A DNA stretch of 64,000 nucleotides from a virus (IMGVR_UViG_3300029474_000225:35109-99108), one strand, 5' to 3'; positions 1 through 54,682 are shown, numbered from the stretch's first letter. Notes: generated from the letters alone by a model not told the origin. Program-made: numbers and translations.

Positions 1-409
1 ATGTAAGCTGCTTTGTATCAGGATTGATTTCAACATATGTATTTTTTAATATCTCAAAATCCTGTTTGGTAATATCATATTCTTCTATAACATTTGCAAC
101 TTCATCCATTATAAGCGTATAATTTTGCGCTCTACATAAATCAATCAGTTCATTGTCGAATTTTTGAAATAGAGCATGGGTTGACACTATGTTATTACCA
201 TTGCCGATCAATCTCTTAAGATCTCTAAGTTTACTGCCCCTATCATCCTTTTCATCTTTTAAAAATGTAGGTGCTTTAAAATTCTTACCATTACAATACG
301 TCCTATATCTGGTTATTTCATCAAGGAAAGGTGTTATTACCAAAAATTTCTCATCTTCATCTGATTGATTAATATAATTCATTATTGACTGAGTTTTACC
401 AGCACCCAT
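1..409 (-). CDS. P-loop NTPase (helicase/Zot-like), 5' part of gene; continues beyond window start
   Basis: Reverse-strand ORF with no stop before the window edge. Walker A MGAGKTQS at the N-terminus and Walker B-like LIMDEV downstream. The start is uncertain: ATG at 409 or TTG at 424, and no canonical SD was found. Confidence 0.5.
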   Translation of the reverse strand, partial: MGAGKTQSIMNYINQSDEDEKFLVITPFLDEITRYRTYCNGKNFKAPTFLKDEKDDRGSKLRDLKRLIGNGNNIVSTHALFQKFDNELIDLCRAQNYTLIMDEVANVIEEYDITKQDFEILKNTYVEINPDTKQLT

Positions 410-578
410 AATGGCATCTACAATATTAACTTTACAATTAAATTCCAATATAAAATCTCCTTTCTAAATACTTGTATATAACTATATTCTCCACTTAACG
501 ACAAAAATCCCTCCAACTGCCGTTTGGCTTGGCATAAAATTTTAACACCATTTTCAAAAAATAAGTTCTTGGATTTTT

Positions 579-727
579 CCCTTATAAATTAAGGGTTTTT
601 GAAGTTTTTGCAAAAATATGCCAAATTTGCAAAAGTTCTAAAATTGAAAAAAAAGCCTTATAAATCAAGGGTTTTTAGGGCTATCCCTTATAAAAGATAT
701 AATAAAAGTTCTAAAATTAAAATTCTT
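579..727. repeat. Two tandem ~75 bp repeat units, each starting with hairpin CCCTTATAAATYAAGGG + T-run and ending with AAAGTTCTAAAATT
   Basis: Direct comparison of 579-653 with 654-727. A third partial copy, CCCTTATAAAAG, lies at 686-697. Confidence 0.6.
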
Positions 728-834
728 ATATTTGTGGACTGCGTAAGCAGGACACAAGGGCATGAGCTTCGTAAGAAGCGATTGACCAACAACGCCGTAG
801 GCAATGAAGTGTACATATATGATTATTCTCTTTT

Positions 835-1251
835 CTATTTTTTATTCTCATCCAAATTCACATAGCTGTCTTTCCAATAATCCTCTACAAAGAATACTGG
901 TAATTTATCATGATATCTTTCATATATTTCTTCGTCTGGTATTCCAACCCAATACGGTTTCCATTTTTGTCTTTCTTTTTGTAATTCTTCAATCTCAGTA
1001 TGATATTTTCCGTTTTGCAAATATCCTTTGATTTTTCCGCATACGGCACAGTAACTGCTCAATGATGTGTGAATTTTATCTTTTTCTTCTTGTGTAAATA
1101 CATTACTTTTAAAATTCCATCTGTATTGAATTAAACATTCTTCATATTGATGTTTATGCTTAGATTTCTTCTTTGCTTTGGATATATTACTTTCTTTATG
1201 TTTGAGGTACTTTGGTGTCTCTGAATTGATTATATTGTTTGTATTGTTCAT
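835..1251 (-). CDS. hypothetical protein (Cys/His-containing, possible HNH-like)
   Basis: 138-aa ORF in the track with an AAAGGAA SD 8 nt upstream of the ATG. It is co-directional with the partial ATPase gene. Confidence 0.55.
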   Translation of the reverse strand: MNNTNNIINSETPKYLKHKESNISKAKKKSKHKHQYEECLIQYRWNFKSNVFTQEEKDKIHTSLSSYCAVCGKIKGYLQNGKYHTEIEELQKERQKWKPYWVGIPDEEIYERYHDKLPVFFVEDYWKDSYVNLDENKK

Positions 1252-1685
1252 GATATAATTCCTTTCTTGATTGATAATATATTATTCTCTGTTGGGATTG
1301 CTATTTATTGGTTTATTTTATATATGTCTACCCTAGAGATGTTCTTTTCTTGCTAACGCTACGAAAAGACCGTCCCTATCAAGGGACTACATCTTGTGCT
1401 ACGCACATTATCTGATGTATAATTTGGCAATTATGTATAAAATAATGTTTTGTACTGAAAATAATTTTGGTAAAAATCTACAATGAGTAACTTAAGTAGA
1501 TGCATTTTTGACAGCGTAGAATAGCCCTAGAAATGTTTTTTATTGCTTTTATGATAACTTGTTGGGGTAAAAATTAAAAAGCCTTATTTCGGCTTTTAAA
1601 TACGTTAGAATGATATATAATATTTTTGAGGAATTATATTAGTGAGATTTTATTTTATGAAAACATTTATATTGAAACATACTTA

Positions 1686-1748: not shown

Positions 1749-2624
1749 ATGAAGAAATCAAAGAGATTAAAGAGGGTATTTAGTTTTGTGTTATGTGTTG
1801 TAATGACTATTACCATTATTCAATTAACACCACAAAATACCTATGCTACCAAGAAGGTTAAATTGAATTATACAAAAATTACTTTGTATGCTGGAGAAGT
1901 AAAAAATTTGAAAATATATGAAGGGAAAACGGAAATATATTCTGCTAGATGGTCTTCTTCTAATAAAAATGTTGTGAAAGTTACTAATTATGGACATATA
2001 GAAGCATTAAAACATGGTTCTGTTAAAATAATCGCCAAATATAATAATAAAAATTATGTTTGCAAGGTTACTGTTAAGGATGCTTTAAAAGATCATGTAA
2101 GTTATGAGTTGATTGATATTCCTGAAAACAAAGATTTTAATAGAAATAATACTAATGCTATTAAGATAATAAATAACAATGATATTACTGTTGAAGCTAG
2201 AATTAAATGTAAACGTTACGATAAAGACGGATTTTATATTGGAAGTGGTGAAATTAGAGGTGTTGTAAATTCTAACAGGTATATTATTATTCCAATATCA
2301 TATGATGAATATACAAGAATAAACTTAAGCAATGTTTATAGAGCCGATCCTATAGATATAGAATATAGCATATCTAATCCATATACTAATGGAAACTTTG
2401 AATATAGAGATATTATATTTAATAATAATTCAAATCGTAATCAATCAGCAGTGTGCTCTATATTGTATTACAATAGTGAAAATAAACCAATTTGTATAAA
2501 CACTTCTTATAGTATAAAAACAAATAAAATACCTGTAGGTGAAAAAATAAAAATATCTGATCGTTATTTATTGGATATGAAAGAAAAATATGATATCCAG
2601 AGAATTGAGATTTATTTATATTAG
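1749..2624 (+). CDS. secreted protein with bacterial Ig-like (Big_2) domain
   Basis: N-terminal signal peptide (KR-rich, then a hydrophobic stretch ending ...TYA). Big_2 signature LYAGEVKNL...WSSSNKNVVKV...GSVKIIAKY. Strong SD TAGGAGGT. Confidence 0.75.
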   Translation: MKKSKRLKRVFSFVLCVVMTITIIQLTPQNTYATKKVKLNYTKITLYAGEVKNLKIYEGKTEIYSARWSSSNKNVVKVTNYGHIEALKHGSVKIIAKYNNKNYVCKVTVKDALKDHVSYELIDIPENKDFNRNNTNAIKIINNNDITVEARIKCKRYDKDGFYIGSGEIRGVVNSNRYIIIPISYDEYTRINLSNVYRADPIDIEYSISNPYTNGNFEYRDIIFNNNSNRNQSAVCSILYYNSENKPICINTSYSIKTNKIPVGEKIKISDRYLLDMKEKYDIQRIEIYLY

Positions 2625-2651
2625 TTGTATATTGTTGAATATTTGTTTATT

Positions 2652-2682
2652 GGACTATGGCTTTGGCTATAGTCCTTTTTTA
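2652..2682 (+). terminator. rho-independent terminator (10-bp stem GGACTATGGC/GGCTATAGTCC + T6)
   Basis: Inverted repeat followed by TTTTTTATT, immediately after the stop of gene 1749-2624. Confidence 0.7.
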
Positions 2683-2714
2683 TTGCTGTTTTATATATGG
2701 ATATCTCTATTTAA

Positions 2715-3020
2715 AAGGTGATTTGTGTGAAGGTTTTAATACCCCCATATGTTGAGATTCTTGAGTGTGACTTTTGATGGAAAAATCGTTATCGGCAAAA
2801 GTGCTTATAAATAAGGATAATTTTGAAATTATGGGTGAATTTTTGATGAGATAGGAGTTTAATTTTTGAGGGTTGAAGTGGCTGAAATGCTTGATTTTAG
2901 TGGGATTTGACGATATGGGGTACGATAAGTGGTTTGAAGGGTGAAATTTTAGATTTTGCTTGATTTTGTTGGGATTTTGAATATTGGGAAGGGTTAGATT
3001 TTTGAGTTGGTGTGTGGATG
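2715..3020. repeat. GT-rich iteron-like array (degenerate GRKTTTTGA / GATTTTG repeats, >12 copies)
   Basis: Strong G+T bias on the + strand. Repeated motifs include GGGATTTGACGA, GGGATTTTGAAT, AGATTTTTGAG, AATTTTTGAGGG and GATTTTGTTGGG. No ORF of 60 aa or more on either strand. Confidence 0.5.
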
Positions 3021-3273
3021 AATCAGCTATAAGGTTTACTGTATTTCCAGCCCATCTAATTAGTTTTAACTACCCCGGGTTAGGCAAAAACAGTGGATAA
3101 TAGATATATATTGACCATTCTTTTTCTGATCCTTTGATCAAGTTTGATGTAGTTTTTAAAACTATATGAGATAGTATTGATATTATTATTTTGTATAGTT
3201 TAAAACTATGACATATCGTTTAACATAGCTTTTATTTATACAAAACAATTTATAACTTGATAACAAAAAAGCG

Positions 3274-3302
3274 TTGACAAAACACAAACAACATGATATA
3301 TT
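3274..3302 (+). promoter_or_regulatory. consensus-like sigma-A promoter P1 (TTGACA-17-TATATT)
   Basis: Perfect -35 hexamer, a 17-nt spacer and a good -10 hexamer. Confidence 0.55.
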
Positions 3303-3353
3303 ATAGTCACAACAAAACAACGACAACACGAACATACATTACAAAAGTTTTTG

Positions 3354-3382
3354 TTGACAATCACAACATGTTGTGATAACAT
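3354..3382 (+). promoter_or_regulatory. sigma-A promoter P2 (TTGACA-17-TAACAT) with perfect 16-bp palindromic operator TCACAACATGTTGTGA in spacer (3361-3376)
   Basis: Perfect -35 hexamer. The palindrome was checked by reverse complement. Confidence 0.55.
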
Positions 3383-3450
3383 ATAACCAAGTTAATAAGG
3401 AAGCAGCCACACTTTAAACTACTTTGTTAGCAATCCTTAAAAACAAGTTA

Positions 3451-3479
3451 TTGACAATCACAATAATATGTGATATAGT
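3451..3479 (+). promoter_or_regulatory. sigma-A promoter P3 (TTGACA-17-TATAGT) with operator-like TCACAATAATATGTGA in spacer
   Basis: Perfect -35 hexamer, 17-nt spacer, TATAGT -10 hexamer. The spacer carries the inverted repeat TCACA-N6-TGTGA. Confidence 0.55.
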
Positions 3480-4198
3480 AATTACAACAAATAAACAAGC
3501 ACCAACAAGAAAGAAGGTTGATTCACTGATACTGATTTAACAATTTAACATGAATTAAAGCAAGCACCCACTAGCAGAACGGCAATTCTAACTAGCAGGT
3601 TGCAAGCTAGGAAAGTTCCCAAAACAATTCTAGCACATCTGCTTTAATTCCACAAGAACAAAACAGTCTTATGCGTGTATAGGTTCATAAGATTTGACTG
3701 TTTATCATTCCTAGAGTGACAAGCAAAAGACTAAAAGCGTATAGGGTTGCTAAGGGTTTTAATCAAAACGTTTCCCTTATACAAAGCACCACCAAAAGTG
3801 GGAATATATTGTGGACAATAGACACAAAGTCCCGAAAAAATAGTGTAGCTGTCCCGGTTTATTACCTTGGACAACAAATTATAGCATTTATTTTTAGCTA
3901 TAAATACGTGAGAGAACACTCACAAGTGTATACGGTCAAAAAGCCTAGTTATTTTCTAGGAGTGACGTTAAAGCTGATTAGAAACGGCACGAACTTAAAA
4001 AACCGCGCTACAACAAAAAGCGTGATTGACTTAGGTTCATAATCATACTTACTAAGTCAATAAATACATAAGAGACAGACACAAGTACAAAGTGGCAGGT
4101 AGCAGGGTAACACCTGCTATTCTTGGTGTTGGGTAACTCCAACTCACATGACCGTTGTATCTCTGTGTTCTGTATAATTCAAGTTATACATAGTTAGA

Positions 4199-4232
4199 GG
4201 AGCAGATCAGCACTACCAGTCTGCTCTTTTAT
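4199..4232 (+). terminator. rho-independent terminator (GGAGCAGA...TCTGCTCT + TTTTAT)
   Basis: 7-8 bp GC-containing stem followed by a T-run. It lies about 750 nt downstream of P3 and before the SD of gene 4313. Confidence 0.55.
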
Positions 4233-4312
4233 AGTGTGCATAACACTATTACAACAAATACAATAAATCATATTATAGCACCTATGCGTTAAATAGGAGA
4301 AAGAGGTACTTT

Positions 4313-5128
4313 ATGAAAACATTATCAATCAATTTCTATGCAAAGAATATCACAGAAGAGTCTAAGTCTGAACTTATGACAGCAGTACAGCACGAGTCTT
4401 GCAACATGAATATTCAGTTACTCGATGATACAATCGCTAAACTTGAGAAGAAGATTGCTAATGAGAATAGCAACTATTCCGATGAAGAAGTACAAGCTTT
4501 CCAGGTACAGTTAGACTCTGCAAATGAATCACGGACTAAGTTTGTGGAGACACAGACAGACACATTAAAAGTATACAATAAAGTTATTTCTGTTATGTCA
4601 CAGAAAAATGCTGACCACTTTGGCAACTCTACTGATGTTGTAAGAACTGTACTTCGTGTACTTGGTTCATGGGATAACTCTAAGCTTGTAAAGTATGCGA
4701 TTATTCCTGCTTTTGAATCACCTGAACTTTATGAGGCATTACAGGCAATTCATATTAACTCCAAAGCAGGAGATGACGGAAATCTTGTAATGAGCAAAGA
4801 GGTAAAAGAAGCCTATAAGAAGGCAAGTACAGAACTTGAAACAATCATCAAGAAAACTTTCTCTCTGCCTTTTGAAACCCCGTACACGGACAAGACAAGA
4901 GTGAAGCTGACAGCAGAAGATAAGAAACTTTTAAATGATTGCTACATCAAGGGATTTTCTAACAAATTTGATGTAGACGATGAAAAGGGAACTGTATCAT
5001 TTAAAAAGCGTCAGATTAACACGCTTGTAAAGGCAAAAAAGAACCGTAAGACAGGTGAAATCACCTATGATTATAGCGGACTTGCAAGCACTATCAGCAA
5101 CATTGTAATTAAGCATTATTTCGCATAA
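4313..5128 (+). CDS. hypothetical protein
   Basis: 271-aa ORF with SD GGAGAAAGAGG 8 nt upstream. Confidence 0.65.
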   Translation: MKTLSINFYAKNITEESKSELMTAVQHESCNMNIQLLDDTIAKLEKKIANENSNYSDEEVQAFQVQLDSANESRTKFVETQTDTLKVYNKVISVMSQKNADHFGNSTDVVRTVLRVLGSWDNSKLVKYAIIPAFESPELYEALQAIHINSKAGDDGNLVMSKEVKEAYKKASTELETIIKKTFSLPFETPYTDKTRVKLTAEDKKLLNDCYIKGFSNKFDVDDEKGTVSFKKRQINTLVKAKKNRKTGEITYDYSGLASTISNIVIKHYFA

Positions 5129-5155
5129 TACAAAACAAAAATGTATAGTACGAAA

Positions 5156-5180
5156 GGCAGAATTTTGGTTCTGCCTTTTA
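5156..5180 (+). terminator. rho-independent terminator (GGCAGAA-N6-TTCTGCC + TTTT)
   Basis: Hairpin plus T-run immediately after the stop of gene 4313-5128. Confidence 0.65.
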
Positions 5181-5216
5181 ATAGTGTGCATTTTAATAAA
5201 AGGAGAGTGAACGCAA

Positions 5217-5612
5217 ATGAAAATGAAAATTAGACGAACACTTGGAAATGAACTTTACCACGGAAAACAATTTCCGATCAATACAATTGTTTTGCGTAGT
5301 GAAAACGGAGTAGAGATTTTCTGCGCTGATTTTAGAATGAGAAAAGGCAAAATTACTGTACTTATTCATATTCCAGGTAGAAAGAAATTTCTCAAAACTG
5401 AAATGCGTAATGAATATACAAAGGCAATGTATGACTATACGCAGCAATTCAAAGACGATTCAAAACGCTTGAATTATAAACAAATGATGTCACATGATCG
5501 TAAACGGAAATGCGGATCTGGTGGAGTACGTTTAGGTAAATTCTGTGGTCAAATCACAGACTATGAGTGTACAAAAAATCCTATGCATGATTTTAGAAGA
5601 GTTTATTGCTAA
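5217..5612 (+). CDS. hypothetical protein
   Basis: 131-aa ORF with SD AAAGGAGAG. Confidence 0.6.
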   Translation: MKMKIRRTLGNELYHGKQFPINTIVLRSENGVEIFCADFRMRKGKITVLIHIPGRKKFLKTEMRNEYTKAMYDYTQQFKDDSKRLNYKQMMSHDRKRKCGSGGVRLGKFCGQITDYECTKNPMHDFRRVYC

Positions 5613-5634
5613 TCACAATTCTTTGTGGTAGAAT
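5606..5634 (+). promoter_or_regulatory. promoter TTGCTA-17-TGgTAGAAT (extended -10) with operator-like TCACAATTCTTTGTGG (5613-5628) in spacer
   Basis: Hexamers and spacing read directly. The operator shares the TCACAA-N4-TTGTGR format with P2 and P3. Confidence 0.5.
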
Positions 5635-5665
5635 GGAGGTGTAACAACGGAAAGGAGAATAACAA

Positions 5666-5944
5666 ATGATTGTATATAAGAAATTAGATAAATTATTGCA
5701 AGATAAAAAAATGCAATGGAAAGATTTATGCGAAGCGGGTATATCTGTTAATATGCCTCAAAGATTTTCACAAAATAAAACAATGAATACTGATACTCTA
5801 AATAAAGTCTGCGAATATCTCCATGTCCAACCAAGCGAAATCATGGAATGGATACCAGATGCAGAATATAACAAGGCAAACGAAGAAAAACAAGCCATAG
5901 AAGCTCAAATAGCTGAACTCCAAGAAAAGCTAAAAACCATGTAA
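5666..5944 (+). CDS. XRE-family helix-turn-helix transcriptional regulator (Cro/CI-like)
   Basis: HTH_XRE signature QWKDLCEAGISVNMPQRFSQNKTMNTDTLNKVCEYLHVQPSEI. SD AAAGGAGAA. Confidence 0.75.
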   Translation: MIVYKKLDKLLQDKKMQWKDLCEAGISVNMPQRFSQNKTMNTDTLNKVCEYLHVQPSEIMEWIPDAEYNKANEEKQAIEAQIAELQEKLKTM

Positions 5945-5960
5945 AAAGGGAGGAACCACT

Positions 5961-6209
5961 ATGCCAACAATAGAAGAAATGCGTCAATCAATGGCACAAG
6001 CAGGAGTGTATTCAAAAGCAGATATAGATAAAATCTGCGAACTCGAAAAGCAGTACAGAGAGGAATGCAAAGAGATAGCCGATCAGTGTGAAGCTGAAGG
6101 TTATCCAGCAAACGGAAGTAATTATGAACTCCGTTGTTCAGAAGCTCGTAAGTATTATGACGAGCAGTTTGCAGATATAGACGCAAATTATAATTTTGAT
6201 GAAGAATAA
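5961..6209 (+). CDS. hypothetical protein
   Basis: 82-aa ORF with SD AAGGGAGGAA. Confidence 0.55.
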   Translation: MPTIEEMRQSMAQAGVYSKADIDKICELEKQYREECKEIADQCEAEGYPANGSNYELRCSEARKYYDEQFADIDANYNFDEE

Positions 6210-6232
6210 TTTGCAAAACACAGCACCAATCA

Positions 6233-6261
6233 AGCACCCAATTTCCGGGTGCTATTTTTAT
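6233..6261 (+). terminator. rho-independent terminator (AGCACCC-N7-GGGTGCT + T-run)
   Basis: GC-rich 7-bp stem followed by ATTTTTAT. Confidence 0.65.
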
Positions 6262-6292
6262 ACCCAAAAACAATCAGAAAAGGAGAATAAAT

Positions 6293-6790
6293 ATGAAAAA
6301 GAAATTATTATCACTCATTCTTACAACAGCAACAATCCTTACATCCTACACAGTAGGCACAATGCAACCAATGCAAACAGTCAATGCCTCAACTCCAAAG
6401 CAGATCAGTGTCACAAATGCAATTCCAATCTGTGACATTGCTGGTTATTTCTATGACAAATATGGATATCTCTGCTTTGAGCTTGGCGATACAACAAAGC
6501 AGTTCAATAAGGCAGATGGATATTCGTATTCAAAAATCTGTGAGAAACTTCCGCATCTTAAAGATTTAGATGAAAACAAAACATATCCTTTGACAGCGAA
6601 AGTAACAAAGGTAAACAAAAAGAAAAACGTTGTCACTGTACAGGATTATAGCGGAAACAAATGGAAATTTCGTGGCTGTGAAGACTATGAAAATGGAGAC
6701 GTAGTATCTATGCTCATAGATAGTAACGGAACAGAAAAGGTAACTGATGATATTATTTTACAGGTCAGATACAGCGGTGCAGAGTGGTAA
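6293..6790 (+). CDS. secreted hypothetical protein
   Basis: N-terminal signal peptide MKKKLLSLILTTATILTSYTV...VNAST. SD AAAAGGAGAA. Confidence 0.65.
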   Translation: MKKKLLSLILTTATILTSYTVGTMQPMQTVNASTPKQISVTNAIPICDIAGYFYDKYGYLCFELGDTTKQFNKADGYSYSKICEKLPHLKDLDENKTYPLTAKVTKVNKKKNVVTVQDYSGNKWKFRGCEDYENGDVVSMLIDSNGTEKVTDDIILQVRYSGAEW

Positions 6791-7364: not shown

Positions 7365-7478
7365 ATGAAAGGATATGAAGTACCGGATGGTTATATGGGT
7401 TGGATCAATGGAAAATACCAGCTTTTTGAAAGCGAAAGCCAATATTACGAAACACTTTTAGAGAGAGAAGAGGTCTAA
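7365..7478 (+). CDS. small hypothetical protein (37 aa)
   Basis: The ATG directly abuts the upstream stop (TAAATG). The ORF bridges to the next gene, but the SD is weak. Confidence 0.3.
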   Translation: MKGYEVPDGYMGWINGKYQLFESESQYYETLLEREEV

Positions 7479-7616: not shown

Positions 7617-7672
7617 TGTGGTCGCTATTTTAATGCAAAAAATTATTTTAAGAAAGGTAAAAGGTGAATATT

Positions 7673-8608
7673 ATGTGTAAAATGTTTGAAGTTGTAACAG
7701 GAAAGAGATCAAAAGGAAGTGTAGACAAATTAGAAGGTCTTACAAAGATGTATACGGATATCAATGAAGAGATTGCGATTATTAAAATTCCTGTTGAGTT
7801 AATGGAAGTTGATTCACGGTATCAGACAGACGAGAGAACGGAAAGAGATCTTCAGTATCTTGTACGGAATTGGGATGAACGGAAACTTATGCCACTTATG
7901 GGCGTTCCGCATTGGGAAGAAGGTAAAGTATACATTGTAGATGGTTATGGTCGTTGGATTGCAAGTCAGATTGTAAACAAAAAGAAATACAAAGATTTGA
8001 AAGTACAGATGATCTTAAATGCACCAACTGATCCAGAAGAAAGACTTGAATTTGAGGCTGAAATGTACGCATTCCAGAATAGAGATGTAAAAGATTTAAC
8101 ACCTATTCAGAAGCATGGTGCAATGATGGTTTTACATGATCCATCAACAGAAACATTGGAGAATATGAGAAAGAAATATGGCTTTGAATATGTTGCAAAT
8201 AAGGGAAACAGAGAAGCTTCTGTTCTTGGTTCGTATACAGAGACATTGCGGTTATGCAAGTTAGACAACGGAAAAGCTGCTGAATATGTATTTGATATTT
8301 GTGCAGGAGCTGGATTTGATCGGAAACCAAACGGATATTCTACATATATTATGCGATCATTAAGAGATATTTATAAACTCTATGCGAATGACCGTGAAGC
8401 AACAAAAGAATTTTTAATTGAAGAACTTAGACAGATTACACCTGTTGGATTAAAGGCAAAGGCAACTGTAAAATATCCAATGCTTGATATGAAAACTGCT
8501 GTATCTCTTTACACAGAAGATATGGTTGTTAAAAATCTTGGACTTGAACAATCAAGGGAAGTTTCTGGAACTAGAGTTGTTCCAATTAAAAAGACAAAGA
8601 CGGCATAA
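7673..8608 (+). CDS. ParB-like nuclease domain (ParB N-terminal/Srx fold) protein
   Basis: ParBc signature IPVELMEVDSRYQ ... YIVDGYGRWIAS, matching the DGHHR-type motif. SD AGGTGA 5 nt upstream of the ATG. Confidence 0.65.
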   Translation: MCKMFEVVTGKRSKGSVDKLEGLTKMYTDINEEIAIIKIPVELMEVDSRYQTDERTERDLQYLVRNWDERKLMPLMGVPHWEEGKVYIVDGYGRWIASQIVNKKKYKDLKVQMILNAPTDPEERLEFEAEMYAFQNRDVKDLTPIQKHGAMMVLHDPSTETLENMRKKYGFEYVANKGNREASVLGSYTETLRLCKLDNGKAAEYVFDICAGAGFDRKPNGYSTYIMRSLRDIYKLYANDREATKEFLIEELRQITPVGLKAKATVKYPMLDMKTAVSLYTEDMVVKNLGLEQSREVSGTRVVPIKKTKTA

Positions 8609-26783: not shown

Positions 26784-26812
26784 TTGACAAGTTGATGACA
26801 ACTTGCTATAAT
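26784..26812 (+). promoter_or_regulatory. perfect-consensus sigma-A promoter (TTGACA-17-TATAAT) with palindrome CAAGTTG-ATGA-CAACTTG (26788-26805) in spacer, driving toxin-like gene
   Basis: Hexamers and the palindrome were read directly. The AAGTTG half-site is shared with the RHH promoter region. Confidence 0.6.
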
Positions 26813-27501: not shown

Positions 27502-27829
27502 TTATAGGACTTGAAGTATTATATAATAAAAATATTAAACGAACAAATATCGAACGAATGTTCTGGAAATGCGTTGACAAGAACAAATGTTTGGAGTATT
27601 ATAATTTTCGTAAATAATAAAAAAGATAGAGTCAAGCGATTCAAACGCTGCGCCAACAGCTTTCTACTTGACTCTATCAAACCAAATACATACAACAGCA
27701 TTAAGCCATTGCAGAAGCGAAATATCGCTTGAATTTATTTTACATATATTTCGAAAGAAAGTCAAGCTTCAAGCGTTTTCTGCAATTAAAATTCCTAAGT
27801 TACACAATTAAATATGGAAATAATATTAT

Positions 27830-28990: not shown

Positions 28991-31198
28991 GTGCATGAAG
29001 TGAAAGACGAAATATTGCGTGAAAAATTAAATAATCTTTCATCACAACAGTTGGAATGGATTAATGAATACTGTGTAAATGATATGTCAAAATTGAAGAA
29101 AATTAGTTACAATGCATTTTTCAGGTATGGGATTCCAGCACATGAACATGACGAATTGTACGATGATGCAATGAATGTTCTGATGGAAAGTGTTATCAAC
29201 TTTGATTCATCTCAAGGTGCGAGTTTTAAAACTTACCTTATTAATAATATTAAAAAATCTGTTATTGACTGGTATAGAGACAACTATCAGAGATGTAAAA
29301 GAAAAAATCTATTAACTGATAAAAATGGAAAGATAGTAAAGGTTGATAAAAATGGAAATGTAACAGATGACGATAAAGGAAAACCAGTTATTATTCCAGA
29401 TACTTCATTTGATGCACCTACTGAAGAAGATAATGATTTAGTAGAAAAAATTGCATCTGACTTTAACGTAGAAGACAAGAGTGAGTTCGATTTTAGTGCC
29501 GATGAAAAAGTTGATAATTTTATTGATTCTTTGCCGAGGATACAAAAAAATATTTTGCTGATGCGGATGGAGAATGTTCCTGCTGATAATATAAAACAAA
29601 AATTGAATATATCAGACAGAGAATATAGTAGTGCTATGAAGTCAATTAAGATAAATAAAGGACTTTCAGTATTTTCAAAGAATAAAAATGATGGGAATTA
29701 TGATGTGGAGGTAAATAATATGGAAGACAGAATTATTGAAATTAGCGAATCTGAAAATTACAGGACGGACAAGTATAGCATGTATTCGTTGTTACAGGAT
29801 AAGAAAAATGGAGACGTGAACTGCAACTACATCTTGCAACGTGAACCTTTTCAGTGGACTACAGAAGAAGCGAATAGATATTTTTGTCGTATTCTTAGTA
29901 ATCTTCCTATTCCAGAAATTATTCTTTGTGAACAGAAGAAAAAGGGATTGACAATCTCTCATTTAATTGACGGATTGCAGAGACTTTCATATGCTGAGGC
30001 ATTCAAGGAAAATCGTATTAAGATTGGTTCAGCAGGAGCAGAGAGACATTTAATTCAGTATAGAGATTATGTCTTAGATGATAATGGAAATCGTGTACTT
30101 GATGAAGATGGCTTACCAGAATATGAGATGAAAATATTTGATGTTATAGGGAAATATTATAAAGATCTTCCTGATGAGTTAAAGAAACGATTCAATAATT
30201 TCAATATAAACGTAACAAAATTCTTTGATTGTACAGATGAGCAGATTGCAGATCATATTCGTGATTATAACAATCATGCGAGTATGAATAAGGAACAGGG
30301 TGGTTTTCTTAATGTATCTGCACAGACAGCGGGATATATTAAAAATATTTCACAGAAAAACACATTCTTTAAAAATTGTGGGAAGTTTACAGATAATAAT
30401 GTTATTAAGGGAAAGTTGGAACGTGTTGTTGCAGAATCAATAATGTTAATGTTCTTCCGTGATTCATGGAAAGCAAAACTTGATACAATTTACAAATATG
30501 TTGATGAAAATGCAACAGAACAGCAGTTCTTAAAACTTAATTCACATTTTAATAGATTGGAATTAGCATTAGGCGATGACAATAAAGACTTGAAGTCATT
30601 ACTTACTCCAACTACAATGCCAATGTGGATTGCAGTATTTGATAAATTTACTACATATAATATTGAAGATTCAAGATTCATTGATTTCTTAAGAGCATAT
30701 AATACAGAACTTAAAGATAAAGAAGTTGATGGTGTATCTATGGCAGATTTTAAAGACCAACAGACAAAGAAAAAGGCAACTATTACAGGTAAAATTGATT
30801 TACTTATAAAACTGATGAATGAATTTTTACATATTGGTACAAGAGAAGTAAATAACACAGAATTGGAGAATAACAATACGAAAGAAAGTGCTGAAGAAAA
30901 TACGGAAGAAAGTGTTCTTTCTTTTGTTCAAGAAAATGCAAATCCAAATGTGACGGACGAAGATATAAACCTTTACACAGACATGGTGGAAGATTGTGTG
31001 AAGATTGATGATCCAGTTTATAAGGAATGCGGAACTGCATTAGTAGCACTCATGGCATATGCTTGCCAAAATGATAAGGATCAAGACTTTGAAAAATGGA
31101 TTGAAAACTATAGAAATAAATCTGAATTTAGTCCATCACAGAAAGTTAATTATACATATATGAAACGCAGCTTTGATAATTTCGTAGCAAATGCGTAA
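28991..31198 (+). CDS. sigma-70 family (regions 2 and 4) domain fused to DUF262/ParB-like (DGxQR) domain protein, 735 aa
   Basis: N-terminus matches sigma region 2: HDELYDDAMNVLMESVINFDSSQGASFKTYLINNIKKSVIDWYRD. Region 4 HTH: LPRIQKNILLMRMENVPADNIKQKLNISDREYSSAMKSI. DUF262 motifs: QREPFQW ... LIDGLQRL. GTG start. Confidence 0.7.
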   Translation: MHEVKDEILREKLNNLSSQQLEWINEYCVNDMSKLKKISYNAFFRYGIPAHEHDELYDDAMNVLMESVINFDSSQGASFKTYLINNIKKSVIDWYRDNYQRCKRKNLLTDKNGKIVKVDKNGNVTDDDKGKPVIIPDTSFDAPTEEDNDLVEKIASDFNVEDKSEFDFSADEKVDNFIDSLPRIQKNILLMRMENVPADNIKQKLNISDREYSSAMKSIKINKGLSVFSKNKNDGNYDVEVNNMEDRIIEISESENYRTDKYSMYSLLQDKKNGDVNCNYILQREPFQWTTEEANRYFCRILSNLPIPEIILCEQKKKGLTISHLIDGLQRLSYAEAFKENRIKIGSAGAERHLIQYRDYVLDDNGNRVLDEDGLPEYEMKIFDVIGKYYKDLPDELKKRFNNFNINVTKFFDCTDEQIADHIRDYNNHASMNKEQGGFLNVSAQTAGYIKNISQKNTFFKNCGKFTDNNVIKGKLERVVAESIMLMFFRDSWKAKLDTIYKYVDENATEQQFLKLNSHFNRLELALGDDNKDLKSLLTPTTMPMWIAVFDKFTTYNIEDSRFIDFLRAYNTELKDKEVDGVSMADFKDQQTKKKATITGKIDLLIKLMNEFLHIGTREVNNTELENNNTKESAEENTEESVLSFVQENANPNVTDEDINLYTDMVEDCVKIDDPVYKECGTALVALMAYACQNDKDQDFEKWIENYRNKSEFSPSQKVNYTYMKRSFDNFVANA

Positions 31199-38217: not shown

Positions 38218-39179
38218 TGGAAATATCAAATAGAGCGAAAGAAAGATTCTGTAAGGATTGCAATATACCAATTAGATTATTCCAAGAGCCATACTTTTTA
38301 GATAGAATTAAGCTTTTTGATGAGTTCTATGGAACTGTTGACAAGTGGATTAGATTTGCAAGCGAATTACAGGGGTATAATTGTGAGCAGGATTATTTTG
38401 AAGAATATAATCATGTAAAGGATGCAGCTATTACAAGTATCAAAGAGTCAGAGGCATATCAGAGATTTAATGCGGAAAATATGAACAAATTCACTGTGAT
38501 TCATAAAAATTTATCTAATAAAGATATATTTAAGCCAACTAATACTGGAAGAGTTTTTATCAGTATTGATATGAGAAAGGCTAATTTTTCATCTTTACAC
38601 GAATATGATAAAAATATATTTCTTGGAACTGATACATGGGAAGATTTTATTTCTCAATTCACAGATAACGAACATATTATAAATAGTAAATATATTCGTC
38701 AGGTAATTTTGGGTAATTGCAATCCCAAAAGACACATCACATATGAAAAGTACCTTATGGATCAGACATTATCGTTATTATATGACATCATTGGTGAAGA
38801 GAGAATTGTATTCTTTTCAAATGATGAGATTGTTTATGATATGACAACAGTAAGTAATTTGCACATGTTAAATCTTGTGAGAAATTGTGTTGAAGAAAGA
38901 TTAAGTACAAAATCTAATATCCCATTCAGAGTTGAATTATTTTCGCTCCACAAAATCAATGGTACTGACGGATACTGTAAAAAAATCTACAAAGAAAATG
39001 GAGAATATAGTATTGAGTTCAAATGTTTAGACAACTATATGATGCCATTCGTACTTAGATATTTCTTGGGAGAAGAAATTACTGAAAGTGACAAGGTATT
39101 CTACCATGAAGGACTATTGGCAAAGTTTATTGATGAACCGAAAATTGAGGTGAATTTTGATGAAAAGATTGAAAATTGA
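38217..39179 (+). CDS. hypothetical protein coupled to NTase gene
   Basis: ATGA start/stop overlap with the upstream gene. 320 aa. Confidence 0.6.
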   Translation: MEISNRAKERFCKDCNIPIRLFQEPYFLDRIKLFDEFYGTVDKWIRFASELQGYNCEQDYFEEYNHVKDAAITSIKESEAYQRFNAENMNKFTVIHKNLSNKDIFKPTNTGRVFISIDMRKANFSSLHEYDKNIFLGTDTWEDFISQFTDNEHIINSKYIRQVILGNCNPKRHITYEKYLMDQTLSLLYDIIGEERIVFFSNDEIVYDMTTVSNLHMLNLVRNCVEERLSTKSNIPFRVELFSLHKINGTDGYCKKIYKENGEYSIEFKCLDNYMMPFVLRYFLGEEITESDKVFYHEGLLAKFIDEPKIEVNFDEKIEN

Positions 39180-40533
39180 AATTCCATCTGGTGCAAATGA
39201 AATTATTCATACTTTACAGAATAATGGATATGAAGCTTTCCTGGTAGGAGGATGCGTGAGAGATAGTATTCTTGGCAGATCAATTCACGATTATGACATT
39301 ACAACTTCTGCCACGCCAGATGAAATGATAGAAGTATTCAAGGACAAGAGAATTATTGAAACTGGTTTGCAACATGGAACTATTACCATTGTAATTGACG
39401 GTGAGGGATATGAATGTACCACTTACAGAATTGACGGTAATTACTCAGATAGCCGTAGACCTGATAGCGTAACATTTACACGAAGTCTTAAAGAAGATCT
39501 AAAGCGTAGAGATTTTACAATCAATGCGATGGCATACAATGATGAAATTGGTCTTATAGATCCGTTTAATGGTATGGAAGATATTGAGCATTATAAAATC
39601 AGATGTGTTGGTAGAGCAGAGGATAGATTTTCAGAAGATGCTTTAAGGATTTTACGTGCTATTCGGTTTGCTTCACAATTGGGATTTGTAGTTGACTCTG
39701 ATGTAAGTTTGAACATTCATAAAATGTATAAGAATTTAGAGAATATATCTATTGAGAGAATCAACAGTGAGTTTTGTAAGATTGCATTATCAAGCGAGTT
39801 TTATATACAGATAGGATTATTCCGTGAAGTATTCTCGTTGTTCATTCCTGAAATTAAAGATATGTTTGGCTTTCAACAGAATAATCCATATCACATCTAT
39901 GATGTATGGAATCATACAGTACATGCAGTACAAGCTTATGAATGTGATTGTGAACCAGACTTGAATCCAAGAGATTTGATTACATCATTGGCTGTATTTT
40001 TTCATGATATTGGAAAGCCACATTGTTATCAAGATGTCGAGGATGGCATTAGACATTTCAAAGGTCATGGAAGAGTCAGTGCTGATATGACTGATGAAAT
40101 AATGAAGCGATTAAGATTTGATAATGACACAAGAGAAAAGGTTGTTGAATTAGTTTATTATCATGATGCTACTTTTGAGGTTGGAAAGAAATATGTCAAG
40201 AGATGGCTTAATAAAATTGGAGAAGAACAATTTAGAAGATTATTAAATATTCGTAGAGCCGATATTAAAGCACAAGCAGGCATGAATCAGGAAACAAGAT
40301 TACAGAAGATTGATAACATCGAATATATTTTAGAAGAAGTCTTACAGGATGATGAATGTTTTTCTCTAAAGGATTTAGCAGTTAATGGTAAGGAGTTAAT
40401 TACTATTGGATATAAGCCAGGAAAAGAAATTGGTGAGGTATTAAATAATCTGTTGGATTCAGTCATTAGTGGAGAATATATAAATGAGAAAGAAAAATTA
40501 TTAGAAATAGCAGAGAGGAGATTACATGGTTAA
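39160..40533 (+). CDS. CCA-adding enzyme (tRNA nucleotidyltransferase) with HD domain
   Basis: PolyA-polymerase head domain GGCVRDSILGRSIHDYDITT...RRDFTINAMAY, plus HD motif FFHDIGK. Confidence 0.8.
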   Translation: MKRLKIEIPSGANEIIHTLQNNGYEAFLVGGCVRDSILGRSIHDYDITTSATPDEMIEVFKDKRIIETGLQHGTITIVIDGEGYECTTYRIDGNYSDSRRPDSVTFTRSLKEDLKRRDFTINAMAYNDEIGLIDPFNGMEDIEHYKIRCVGRAEDRFSEDALRILRAIRFASQLGFVVDSDVSLNIHKMYKNLENISIERINSEFCKIALSSEFYIQIGLFREVFSLFIPEIKDMFGFQQNNPYHIYDVWNHTVHAVQAYECDCEPDLNPRDLITSLAVFFHDIGKPHCYQDVEDGIRHFKGHGRVSADMTDEIMKRLRFDNDTREKVVELVYYHDATFEVGKKYVKRWLNKIGEEQFRRLLNIRRADIKAQAGMNQETRLQKIDNIEYILEEVLQDDECFSLKDLAVNGKELITIGYKPGKEIGEVLNNLLDSVISGEYINEKEKLLEIAERRLHG

Positions 40534-52479: not shown

Positions 52480-53799
52480 ATGTATTGTGCTTATATCACA
52501 ACATTAAAAGGATTAAGAAAACATAGTAACGCTGATAGATTACAGTGTGTAGAAGTATTTGGACAGAATGTAATTGTAGATTTGAGTTATCAGGAAGGAC
52601 AGAAAGTAGTCTTCTTTCCATCTGACGGTCAGTTATCACTTGAATATGCAACAGATAATAACCTTGTCAGAAAGAAAGACGAGAATGGAAACAACATTGG
52701 TGGTTATATGGATGCTGAGAAGAGAAATGTAACCGCTATTAGACTTAGAGGTGAGAAGTCAGAAGGACTTGTATTACCTGTTGAGACGCTTTCTAAGTAT
52801 ACAGATATTTCAAAATTAAAAGATGGCGATCAGATTACAGTTCTTGGTGGTCATGAGATTTGTCAGAAATATATTCCAAGAGGAAAGAATCGTTCAAGAG
52901 GTAATGGAAATAGTTCAAATAAGAAGAACAAGTTTCAGAAAGAAACAGTATCATATCCATTTTTTGAGGAGCATAAAGATACAGCACAGCTTGCATATAA
53001 TATGTCAGCATTTAAGCCAGGAGATACAATTTATATTACTCGTAAGCTCCACGGAACATCAGCTCGTACTATGAAGACTGTTAAGATTACAAAAAAGAAT
53101 AATAAGCTGAGAAAATTCTTACATATGCAGCCAAAGGTTACAAGAGAAGTTTCTGTTGTATCTGGTAGTAGAAGAGTTGTATTAAAGGATATGACAAAGA
53201 ATGATGGATATTATTCTGATAATGGATTTAGAAAAAAGTACCACGATTTATTAAAAGACAAGCTTCCTGAAGGTGCTGAAATTTTCTATGAAATTGTCGG
53301 ATATGTAAATGAAACAACACCAATTATGGGTTCAGTATCTAATAAGGGAGTTAAAGAAAAAGAATTTACAAAGAAATTTGGCGACACTACAACATTCTCA
53401 TATGGTTGTGAGCCAGGCGAAAATGAGATGTATGTGTATCGAATGACAATGACAACAGCAGACGGAACAGTTGTTGAAGTGCCTTGGGAAACTGTAGAGG
53501 TATGGTGTGACAAGTTAGGTGTTAAGCATGTACCTGATTTAGAGAAGTTTATTTTTACTACACCAGAAGATTTGAAAAAAAGAGTAAATAAATATCTTGA
53601 TGGTATGCCAGCAGATGAAATTGGCAAGACACATATTGCTGAAGGTGTGGTTGTTCGTATTGATAACAGAGCGACATTTACAGCTTATAAGGATAAAGTA
53701 TTTGAATTTAAGGTAATAGAATCGATCATTAAAGATACGTCTGATGTGCCAGATATGGAAGAAGCAGAGGAAGTTTTAGAGGAGACTTTAAATGAATAA
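52480..53799 (+). CDS. ATP-dependent RNA ligase (Rnl-type, KxHG nucleotidyltransferase motif)
   Basis: Motif I ITRKLHGTSA, with flanking conserved blocks EIFYEIVGY and VPWETVEVWC. SD TAAGAGGAA upstream. Confidence 0.6.
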   Translation: MYCAYITTLKGLRKHSNADRLQCVEVFGQNVIVDLSYQEGQKVVFFPSDGQLSLEYATDNNLVRKKDENGNNIGGYMDAEKRNVTAIRLRGEKSEGLVLPVETLSKYTDISKLKDGDQITVLGGHEICQKYIPRGKNRSRGNGNSSNKKNKFQKETVSYPFFEEHKDTAQLAYNMSAFKPGDTIYITRKLHGTSARTMKTVKITKKNNKLRKFLHMQPKVTREVSVVSGSRRVVLKDMTKNDGYYSDNGFRKKYHDLLKDKLPEGAEIFYEIVGYVNETTPIMGSVSNKGVKEKEFTKKFGDTTTFSYGCEPGENEMYVYRMTMTTADGTVVEVPWETVEVWCDKLGVKHVPDLEKFIFTTPEDLKKRVNKYLDGMPADEIGKTHIAEGVVVRIDNRATFTAYKDKVFEFKVIESIIKDTSDVPDMEEAEEVLEETLNE

Positions 53800-54682
53800 A
53801 CCTACACTATGGATCATGTGTGGTCTGTCTGGTAGTGGCAAATCAACCATTGCCACTCAGATTGCCAATGAGAACCCAAATACAATAATTGTATCATCAG
53901 ATGCAATTCGTGAAGAATTGACAGGTAATTACGAAGACCAAGAACATAATGAAGAAGCGTTTAAGATTTTTCATGATAGAATACGCAAGAATTTAGAGAA
54001 TAAAAAGAATGTAATTGCAGATGCAACTAATCTGACTATGAAATCTCGCAGAGCAATTATGATGAAAGTGAATGGGTTAAATATCAAAAAAGTGTGTGTA
54101 ATTATACCAAAACCATTTGAGCAGTGCAAAGAAGATAATTTACATAGAGAACATCCTGTACCTGGGTTTGTATTAGAGAAGCAGATTAGAAAATATCAGA
54201 TTCCATTCAAGGAAGAGGGATTTGATGAAATTATTATTCATAAATTTCATAATGCTAATGCAATGACCATAGGTAAATTGATTGCTAAAATGAAAGATTT
54301 TGACCAGAAGAATCCTCATCATACTATGACTTTAGAAAATCATTGCTTTAATACATATGATTTATTTATAGAAAAAGGATATAAAGCTGAATACAACATG
54401 GGAGCAGTTCTTCATGATTATGGCAAACTATATTGCCAGATAATTGATGAAAATGGTATAGCTCATTATTATGACCACCCATCTGTTGGATGCTATTTGG
54501 TTTTAGAGAATTTAATAGAAAAGTTTAATAAGGTTGTCTTAGACACATGTTTCCTTATCAATTACCATATGATGCCTTTTAATTGGGATACTGATAAAGC
54601 AAAGCAGCGATGGAAAGAAAGATTTGGAGAATATAAATATAAGATGCTTTTAGATTTTAATAAATGCGATAGAGCGAGGTAA
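53792..54682 (+). CDS. polynucleotide kinase-like P-loop kinase fused to HD-domain phosphohydrolase
   Basis: Walker A GLSGSGKST, then HD-domain motifs LHDYGK and HPSVG. It overlaps the RNA ligase gene by 8 nt. Confidence 0.65.
   Translation: MNKPTLWIMCGLSGSGKSTIATQIANENPNTIIVSSDAIREELTGNYEDQEHNEEAFKIFHDRIRKNLENKKNVIADATNLTMKSRRAIMMKVNGLNIKKVCVIIPKPFEQCKEDNLHREHPVPGFVLEKQIRKYQIPFKEEGFDEIIIHKFHNANAMTIGKLIAKMKDFDQKNPHHTMTLENHCFNTYDLFIEKGYKAEYNMGAVLHDYGKLYCQIIDENGIAHYYDHPSVGCYLVLENLIEKFNKVVLDTCFLINYHMMPFNWDTDKAKQRWKERFGEYKYKMLLDFNKCDRAR

Follow-up and report, generated by a model that had tools for sequence, protein, structure and literature searches.

We analysed a 64-kb stretch of viral DNA (64,000 nt, IMGVR_UViG_3300029474_000225:35109-99108), which we refer to as the window and in which all coordinates are counted. 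The locus of interest lies on its plus strand. It comprises three tandem predicted promoters (P1, P2 and P3), a core region of about 600 nt, a gene for a protein of 271 amino acids (aa) directly downstream of it, and further on a gene for a small XRE-type protein (Table 1). An earlier reading of the sequence (the original prediction) had proposed that the promoters drive a long non-coding transcript or leader that ends at a terminator. We observed that the ~600-nt core is most likely a previously undescribed class of large, highly structured phage non-coding RNA. For comparison, 80 related loci were taken from IMG/VR contigs of about 80-180 kb; these had been picked solely for encoding a relative of the 271-aa protein.

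The predicted transcript had a stronger fold than shuffled sequence (minimum free energy z-score -4.9). The structure of the core was derived with RNAalifold, with one loop-loop pairing added by hand, and contains 113 pairs in 18 helices. It was scored on 20 distinct sequences, and the controls were 500 shuffles and a set in which the 3' partners were slid by 1-3 columns. We observed that 89.3% of the cells were paired as compared to 37-45% with slid partners, although this percentage is inflated because one and the same alignment served to derive and to score the structure; the counts of changes on both sides are less inflated. As many as 60 of the 113 pairs were changed on both sides (19-33 in the slid controls), and the covariation score was 0.377 (0.07-0.12 in the slid controls). 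The 500 shuffles never reached the observed level in cells paired, in pairs or cells with a change on each side, or in the covariation score, while the value for further pair types was reached by 2 of the 500. With a wider alignment of 29 sequences, RNAalifold gave 39 pairs, 27 of them with compensatory changes. A divergent clade, about 50% identical, independently folds into a similar set of helices.

The compensatory changes can be followed in individual helices. One series runs through CUAAGGG/CCCUUA, CUAGAGG/CCUCUA, CUAGUGG/CCACUA and CUAGCGG/CCGCUA, and further pairs are CCAC/GUGG, CUGC/GCAG and GUCC/GGAC. Two hairpin loops, UCCUAGA in the 5' domain and UCUAGGA in the 3' half of the core, could pair as kissing loops; their complementarity (6-13 bp) is kept in 22 of 22 distinct variants. 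In the clade of locus L048 these loops read CCCUGGA/UCCAGGG, which amounts to a compensatory substitution together with a compensatory inserted pair. Such loops may pair within one molecule or between molecules, as the sequence is compatible with either. Single-stranded positions are also conserved, and the motifs AUACAAA, AAAUACAUAAGAG and GUUAUACAUAGUUAG are near-invariant.

We further examined how tightly the RNA is linked to the 271-aa gene. An nhmmer profile of the core gave a single full-length match in the window, at 3641-4245. The same profile matched 74 of the 80 loci; the match always lay directly before the 271-aa gene and, although identity was low, often spanned the whole ~600 nt. 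A covariance model of the 3' domain (R1) recovered 5 of the 6 remaining loci at the expected place (E <= 5e-4). The RNA is therefore found upstream of the gene in about 79 of the 80 loci. The reverse search, a motif search for the RNA made without protein information, found 33 loci. The gene lay immediately downstream in 31 of these, and the other 2 were cut by the locus edge.

The original prediction had seen no credible open reading frame (ORF) in this region. The window does contain a 108-aa ORF with a GTG start, and this is the point in favour of a coding region, whether for this ORF or for a small peptide. However, the ORF is confined to the window and a near-identical twin (L032), and has no Pfam or PHROG match. 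Over the same region the relatives carry 4-14 stop codons in each of the three frames and differ by frame-breaking indels, and the substitutions are spread evenly across codon positions (for example 35/41/36), with no third-position bias. In the ~1 kb between the promoters and the gene at 4313, no conserved ORF was found in any relative. As the 108-aa ORF is not conserved, meets stops in the relatives and shows even substitutions, we rejected it as a protein-coding gene, and the chance that the region codes for protein in any form appears close to negligible. The absence of a credible ORF thus held, as did the proposed non-coding status of the transcript: the two generic marks of a structured RNA, compensatory pairs above controls and no conserved reading frame, are both found. 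We are confident that the core is a conserved structured RNA element transcribed from P1-P3.

As claimed originally, P1, P2 and P3 each have a perfect TTGACA and a 17-nt spacer. They also have TAnnnT and TG elements, and so match sigma-70/sigma-A promoters by sequence; the same layout recurs in the relatives. A loose consensus scan of 2500-6500 was overall unenriched for promoters (18 found and 18 expected), with P1, P2 and P3 as three of its top five sites. The strict pattern TTGACA-N14-TGNTANNNT (TTGACA-N14-TGnTAnnnT) had 5 matches in the 64 kb against 0.15 expected, a number reached in 0 of 100 shuffles. Three of these five matches are P1-P3, all inside 206 nt, and we predict that they are the best sigma-70-type promoters of the region.

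The palindromes TCACAACATGTTGTGA in P2 and TCACAATAATATGTGA in P3 were found as described in the original prediction, but the operator is better defined as ATCACA-N6-TGTGAT. At 0-1 mismatch this sequence occurs within the window only at 3360, 3457 and 5612, the last of these in the promoter of the XRE-type gene. In most of the 80 loci, consensus promoters with an operator, two or three in number, are found ~1 kb before the 271-aa gene, and one more stands before the helix-turn-helix (HTH) gene. Among relatives the operator arms are conserved around 6 variable central nt. In other relatives the spacers hold a different inverted repeat (such as ACTACA-N6-TGTAGT, CACTTTATAAAGTG and CTACC..GGTAG), and in the CACTTT-type relatives this repeat also precedes the HTH gene. 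The loci L001 and L002 encode 271-aa proteins that are 98% identical. In L002 the operators are of the ATCACA type and the HTH protein is 98.5% identical; in L001 the operators are of the ACTACA type and the HTH protein aligns at no more than 40%, over a fragment. Operator type and HTH type thus switch together among the relatives. Such a joint exchange is expected of interchangeable phage immunity modules, and it supports control of the promoters by the XRE-type protein. We found all the sequence features of an XRE/Cro repressor and its operators: an operator over the promoter core, a copy at the putative repressor's own gene, and types that change together. The operator in its own promoter and the joint change of operator and HTH protein support, in silico, the XRE-type protein as the regulator that had been suggested, with P2, P3 and its own promoter as its predicted targets.

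Where a rho-independent terminator had been placed (4199-4232), we observed a closing hairpin followed by UUUUAU, both conserved. Its loop takes insertions of 12 to about 270 nt in the relatives. This hairpin is probably an atypical intrinsic terminator. Beyond it lies the conserved element TTTTATAGTGTGCATAACACTA, which almost every relative has about 80 nt ahead of the 271-aa gene. A repeat of its left half follows the 271-aa gene and the next terminator (5178-5191), and about half of the relatives have a second copy of this type after the gene. The hairpin-associated element TAGTGTGCAT, which had been noted to recur, is indeed present as exact copies at 4232 and 5182. Its copy number in the window is not above chance, but at about 80 nt before the 271-aa gene this motif, too, is kept in almost all relatives. 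A role of TAGTGTGCAT as a general phage promoter is unlikely, since there are only 2-3 copies in 64 kb. Downstream of TTTTATAGTGTGCATAACACTA follow an A-rich spacer and then a hairpin in the 5' untranslated region (UTR) of the gene. This hairpin has the compensatory variants CCGA/UCGG, CCCAC/GUGGG and CCUG/CAGG. Its covariation and its position, burying the ribosome-binding site, suggest translational control of the 271-aa gene.

Table 1. Features of the RNA locus and its surroundings (positions in the window)
Feature	Position	Strand	Details
Promoter P1	3274-3302	+	TTGACA-17-TATATT, TG extended -10; degenerate operator copy only (by eye)
Promoter P2	3354-3382	+	TTGACA-17-TAACAT, TG extended -10
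Operator of P2, ATCACAACATGTTGTGAT	3360-3377	+	Fills spacer, overlaps extended -10
Promoter P3	3451-3479	+	TTGACA-17-TATAGT, TG extended -10
Operator of P3, ATCACAATAATATGTGAT	3457-3474	+	Inside spacer
Variable 5' leader	3486-3640	+	From alignment; long hairpin with arms 3552-3562 and 3640-3650
Conserved RNA core, ~600 nt	3641-4232	+	At least 15 covariation-supported helices; ends in closing hairpin and U-run
5' domain helices	3664-3676/3737-3749, 3699-3706/3718-3725	+	Present loop AUUCCUAGAGU
5' kissing loop, UCCUAGAG	3709-3716	+	In hairpin 3699-3706/3718-3725
108-aa ORF, GTG start	3716-4042		From window ORF list
5' domain, further helices	3751-3756/3774-3779, 3789-3792/3798-3801	+	
Variable middle module	about 3802-3945	+	Differs between clades
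Hairpin-presented UUUUCUAGGAG	3951-3961	+	
3' kissing loop, UUCUAGGA	3954-3961	+	Complementary to 3709-3716
Helices	4004-4009/4019-4024 and 4025-4034/4052-4061	+	
3' domain	4075-4173	+	Long helix 4075-4097/4149-4173 encloses two hairpins (helices 13-17)
3' domain hairpins	4098-4121, 4124-4146	+	GUAAYN hexaloops
Closing hairpin and UUUUAU	4195-4235	+	12-13 bp stem 4195-4231, helix 18; conserved
Conserved element TTTTATAGTGTGCATAACACTA	4228-4248	+	Inverted repeat TAGTGT-N5-ACACTA; part adjoining the gene
5' UTR hairpin, CCUA-UGCGUUAAA-UAGG(AG)	4284-4306	+	3' arm is part of the ribosome-binding site
271-aa protein gene	4313-5128	+	Downstream of the RNA
Promoter of XRE-type gene	5606-5634	+	TTGCTA-17-TAGAAT
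Operator of XRE-type gene, ATCACAATTCTTTGTGGT	5612-5629	+	In promoter spacer
XRE/Cro-type HTH_26 protein, 92 aa	5666-5944	+	Pfam HTH_26, E 7.6e-15; proposed repressor

The 271-aa protein was modelled with AlphaFold2 at a mean predicted local distance difference test (pLDDT) of 96.8. The model shows a long antiparallel coiled-coil hairpin and a C-terminal domain. Searches of Pfam, PHROGs, NCBIfam and of PDB sequences and folds yielded only the coiled-coil hairpin for this family; the C-terminal domain had no PDB fold match and, judging by the model, may be a new fold. There was no match by tblastn among cultured phages. Among 90%-identity clusters we found 552 homologues at E<=0.001, and at 50% identity about 120 clusters.

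Together, these observations make us lean towards an abundant, discrete early RNA that the XRE-type repressor switches off, and that works either together with the 271-aa protein or as an assembly of RNA. Upon infection or induction, this RNA would be the first product of the host RNA polymerase, and a very abundant one. The majority of transcripts would end at the closing hairpin and give a discrete RNA of ~750 nt (longer from P1 or P2), and some would read through into the 271-aa gene. The XRE-type protein, as it accumulates, would bind ATCACA-N6-TGTGAT across the spacers between -35 and -10, and would so shut off P2, P3 and its own promoter. The RNA might join the 271-aa protein in a ribonucleoprotein, or form an RNA-only assembly or act as a decoy. 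An RNA of so elaborate a fold, made in such quantity, would more likely have a task that requires many copies than act as a simple antisense regulator; the complementarity of the core to the rest of the window was no better than that of a reversed-sequence control. A more specific version, which is tentative and on our estimate rather improbable, is that the loops, with their self-complementary core CUAG, pair between molecules. The RNA would then form a homo-oligomer or a large ribonucleoprotein with the coiled-coil 271-aa protein, made in bulk within the first minutes of infection, that takes over or shields a host process.

Several points weigh against a discrete early RNA. Besides the inflated pairing percentage given above, all the compared sequences come from a single phage clade with common ancestry, and promoter activity, RNA ends, stability and abundance are all predicted from the sequence. 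The closing hairpin has a loop of 11-13 nt followed by only four U and is missing from the terminator scan of 2500-6500, which did not list it because of this loop and the short U-run; of the terminator originally claimed, it is the hairpin and U-run that stood and not the typical form. No convincing sigma-A promoter was found between the RNA and the 271-aa gene, where there is only a 9/12 match at 4248-4276, and read-through from P1-P3 is for this reason a real possibility. With an atypical terminator and no intervening promoter, the RNA is possibly mainly the 5' part of the 271-aa mRNA. Binding of the RNA by the 271-aa protein, finally, is suggested by adjacency alone. In the main rival, accordingly, the RNA would for the most part be a giant cis-acting leader on the 271-aa mRNA, working by attenuation or processive antitermination and/or by control of translation, with no separate RNA. 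The strict adjacency of RNA and gene on the same strand would fit such a leader, as would the hairpin and U-run between a sensor-like RNA and the gene and the covarying hairpin that sequesters the Shine-Dalgarno sequence in the 5' UTR. To our knowledge, however, bacterial and phage leaders are all several times smaller than ~600 nt and about 18 helices, and no riboswitch, T-box or leader family of Rfam was matched. A candidate antiterminator pairing of AAGAGACAGAC (4068-4078) with the 3' arm of the closing hairpin was set aside, as by eye it is not conserved in divergent members. Three tandem near-consensus promoters better suit the production of RNA in bulk, and in some relatives insertions of 200-350 nt part the core from the gene. 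The original prediction had offered a free RNA or a leader; either may be right, and on balance we regard a leader alone as unlikely but as a serious contender.

The region might instead act as DNA, for example as a transcription-activated replication origin or a packaging region, with the RNA fold being incidental. Gene orientation and GC skew change here, a conserved, strand-asymmetric G+T-rich stretch with iteron-like repeats adjoins the region, and tandem promoters lie next to origins in T7 and lambda. However, the 60 base pairs changed on both sides and the conserved loops point to selection on the RNA fold, and the iteron-like stretch precedes the promoters and is outside their transcripts, so that we consider a DNA-level role very unlikely. 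We also evaluated TIGR-Tas, a system of a phage-borne Nop-domain protein and a guide-RNA array (PMC12045711; bioRxiv 10.64898/2026.09.09.750476), because the best Foldseek matches of the 271-aa model in the PDB were TasH chains. In such a system the RNA would serve as the stem-loop guide array, with the 271-aa protein as its TasA-type Nop partner. TasA proteins, small and with a coiled coil, are encoded in phages next to non-coding arrays closed by a terminator, and some TasA loci include a ParB homologue (PMC12045711); here, too, a small coiled-coil phage protein lies beside a long non-coding unit ending in a terminator, and a ParB-like gene is nearby (7664-8608). The TasH matches were not significant, however (E 0.065-0.2, template modelling score about 0.25), and profile searches gave no Nop domain or Tas sequence. 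With the published unit rules for box C and box D, even relaxed, neither the RNA nor the window as a whole gave a single unit, and there was no tandem array. Both defining features of TIGR-Tas, the Nop domain and the box C/D dual-spacer arrays, thus fail here. We have rejected this identity, and any TIGR-Tas-like RNA-guided system at this locus appears extremely unlikely.

The window comes from a large phage genome and has nearly all of its genes on the plus strand. They include an integrase, a sigma factor, two tRNAs, a CCA-adding enzyme, an RNA ligase, a polynucleotide-kinase-like protein and a ParB-like protein. The clade consists of uncultured phages of ~150 kb known mainly from gut samples, and going by the sample numbers, many of the relatives are presumably from human gut. 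The region had no nucleotide match among cultured phages or plasmids by blastn. One copy of the 271-aa gene lies on an assembled contig of 4.99 Mb (ERZ27273294 contig_88), pointing to an integrated prophage. A Bacillota host would fit the promoter type, the low G+C and the GGAGG ribosome-binding sites; a scan of bacterial genomes for the host gave only chance matches, the motif being too loose.

We also made a number of observations around the locus. Between P3 and the core, many relatives (L002, L007 and others) have a 38-aa ORF (MYNPKGYYVPSGYMGYVSEEKSYILFSTEQEYLEYITD) in place of the leader hairpin, and by eye a similar small ORF is present in the window at 7365-7478. These ORFs suggest a family of small proteins that changes its position within these phages. 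The G+T-rich stretch at 2772-3030, directly upstream of the tandem promoters, is non-coding and almost free of C on the plus strand. Its iteron-like repeats are at 2888-2908/2957-2977 and 2857-2870/2993-3006, and it is kept at 70-83% identity in 70 of the 80 loci. Its RNA structure was not significant on either strand (z about -1.5), and it may be an origin, packaging or partition site. Just upstream of P1, at 3137-3261, are the A+T-rich inverted repeats TGTAGTTTTTAAAACTAT and TGTATAGTTTAAAACTAT as well as longer arms, which may be a further protein-binding region. The ParB-like protein at 7664-8608 (PHROG 1033) is conserved downstream in the relatives, where it has a weak DUF6551 match.

Elsewhere in the window, a consensus promoter at 26784-26812 fits the strict extended -10 pattern. 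Another, at 27574-27604, has by eye TTGACA, a ~19-nt spacer and TATAAT with no TG extension; it is followed by ~250 nt of non-coding sequence and then by tRNA-Gln (27830) and tRNA-Met (28065). The genes at 28991-31198, 39157-40533, 52480-53799 and 53792-54682 encode a 735-aa sigma protein and an RNA-repair-like set made up of the CCA-adding enzyme, the RNA ligase and the polynucleotide-kinase-like protein. The 735-aa protein has sigma-70 region 2 and a weak match to GmrSD_N that is below threshold (24.9 bits, with a cut-off of 33.2 bits). In the related locus L324 an 810-aa protein with a Pfam RdRP match (PF05183) is encoded at 1-1425 on the minus strand, a few kb upstream of the RNA locus and opposite to it. 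We take the PF05183 family to include YonO-type single-subunit RNA polymerase. The loci L320 and L323 have at this position (1-1563, minus strand) an 874-aa gene with no recorded Pfam match, and no RdRP-type protein was seen within the window's portion of its genome.

The RNA was compared with known families by means of the covariance models of Rfam 15, a search that the original prediction had proposed as a check, and no family was matched. At the gathering threshold there were only the two tRNAs in the whole window and nothing in 11 divergent loci, and over 3100-4400 at E<=10 there were merely two chance-level matches of 11-14 bits. The RNA is not a member of ROOL or GOLLD, since neither model gave a match even at E<=10; OLE and raiA likewise had no covariance-model match. 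The large IMG/VR catalogue of candidate structured RNAs holds elements of 29-151 nt only (PMC10690425), and individual hairpins of this RNA could be listed among them. We found no description of the ~600-nt unit in the literature, of which our coverage is incomplete, and an earlier description elsewhere is possible.

The proposed control resembles that by Cro and CI in temperate phages, in that inverted-repeat operators lie over the promoter core in several copies, the repressor gene is self-regulated, and there are interchangeable immunity types in which operator and HTH protein change jointly. In contrast to these, the first product here is a 600-nt structured RNA and not a protein, and no divergent CI-like gene was seen beside the promoters. 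Among phage RNAs, the pRNA of phi29 is made from a strong early promoter near the genome end and assembles by complementary loop-loop pairing between copies. It is about 174 nt long and restricted to small phi29-like phages. The RNA described here is likewise a phage RNA with strong promoters and complementary loops; no homology to phi29 pRNA was detected with Rfam 15, and a packaging role for it would be pure speculation.

The closest known kind are the large ornate RNAs ROOL, GOLLD and OLE. OLE RNA is about 600 nt long, occurs in Bacillota and forms a ribonucleoprotein with the OapA, OapB and OapC proteins (PMC12054373, PMC12286853). Its size and complexity are similar, and it too works with dedicated partner proteins encoded nearby (PMC12054373, PMC12286853). 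However, OLE is a host RNA of extremophiles and anaerobes rather than a phage RNA, and here there is no Rfam match and the 271-aa protein has no detectable relation to known families. ROOL and GOLLD are large ornate RNAs of phages and prophages with Rfam families of their own, and form nanocages seen by cryo-electron microscopy (PMC12286853). ROOL is reportedly as abundant as 16S rRNA, and GOLLD expression goes up during phage lysis (PMC12286853). ROOL, GOLLD and OLE form RNA-only assemblies, and their functions are still unknown (PMC12286853).

Like ROOL and GOLLD, the RNA described here is phage-encoded, about 600-800 nt long and heavily paired, with pseudoknots or kissing loops, conserved loops and no protein product. 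The abundance of ROOL and the expression of GOLLD in lysis also fit the bulk production that three strong promoters would give here. Unlike them, it is not beside tRNA genes (the tRNAs are about 24 kb away), and its association with one protein gene and with early promoters under repressor control has no described counterpart in ROOL or GOLLD. Not many bacterial or phage RNAs are known that are both large and highly structured, and this RNA would add a class unrelated to them, being the first product of a repressor-controlled early unit and always paired with one conserved partner gene. In public metagenome data the phage clade is well represented, and the locus offers experimental handles, namely expression timing, a candidate partner protein and a candidate regulator, that are not described for ROOL and GOLLD in PMC12286853.

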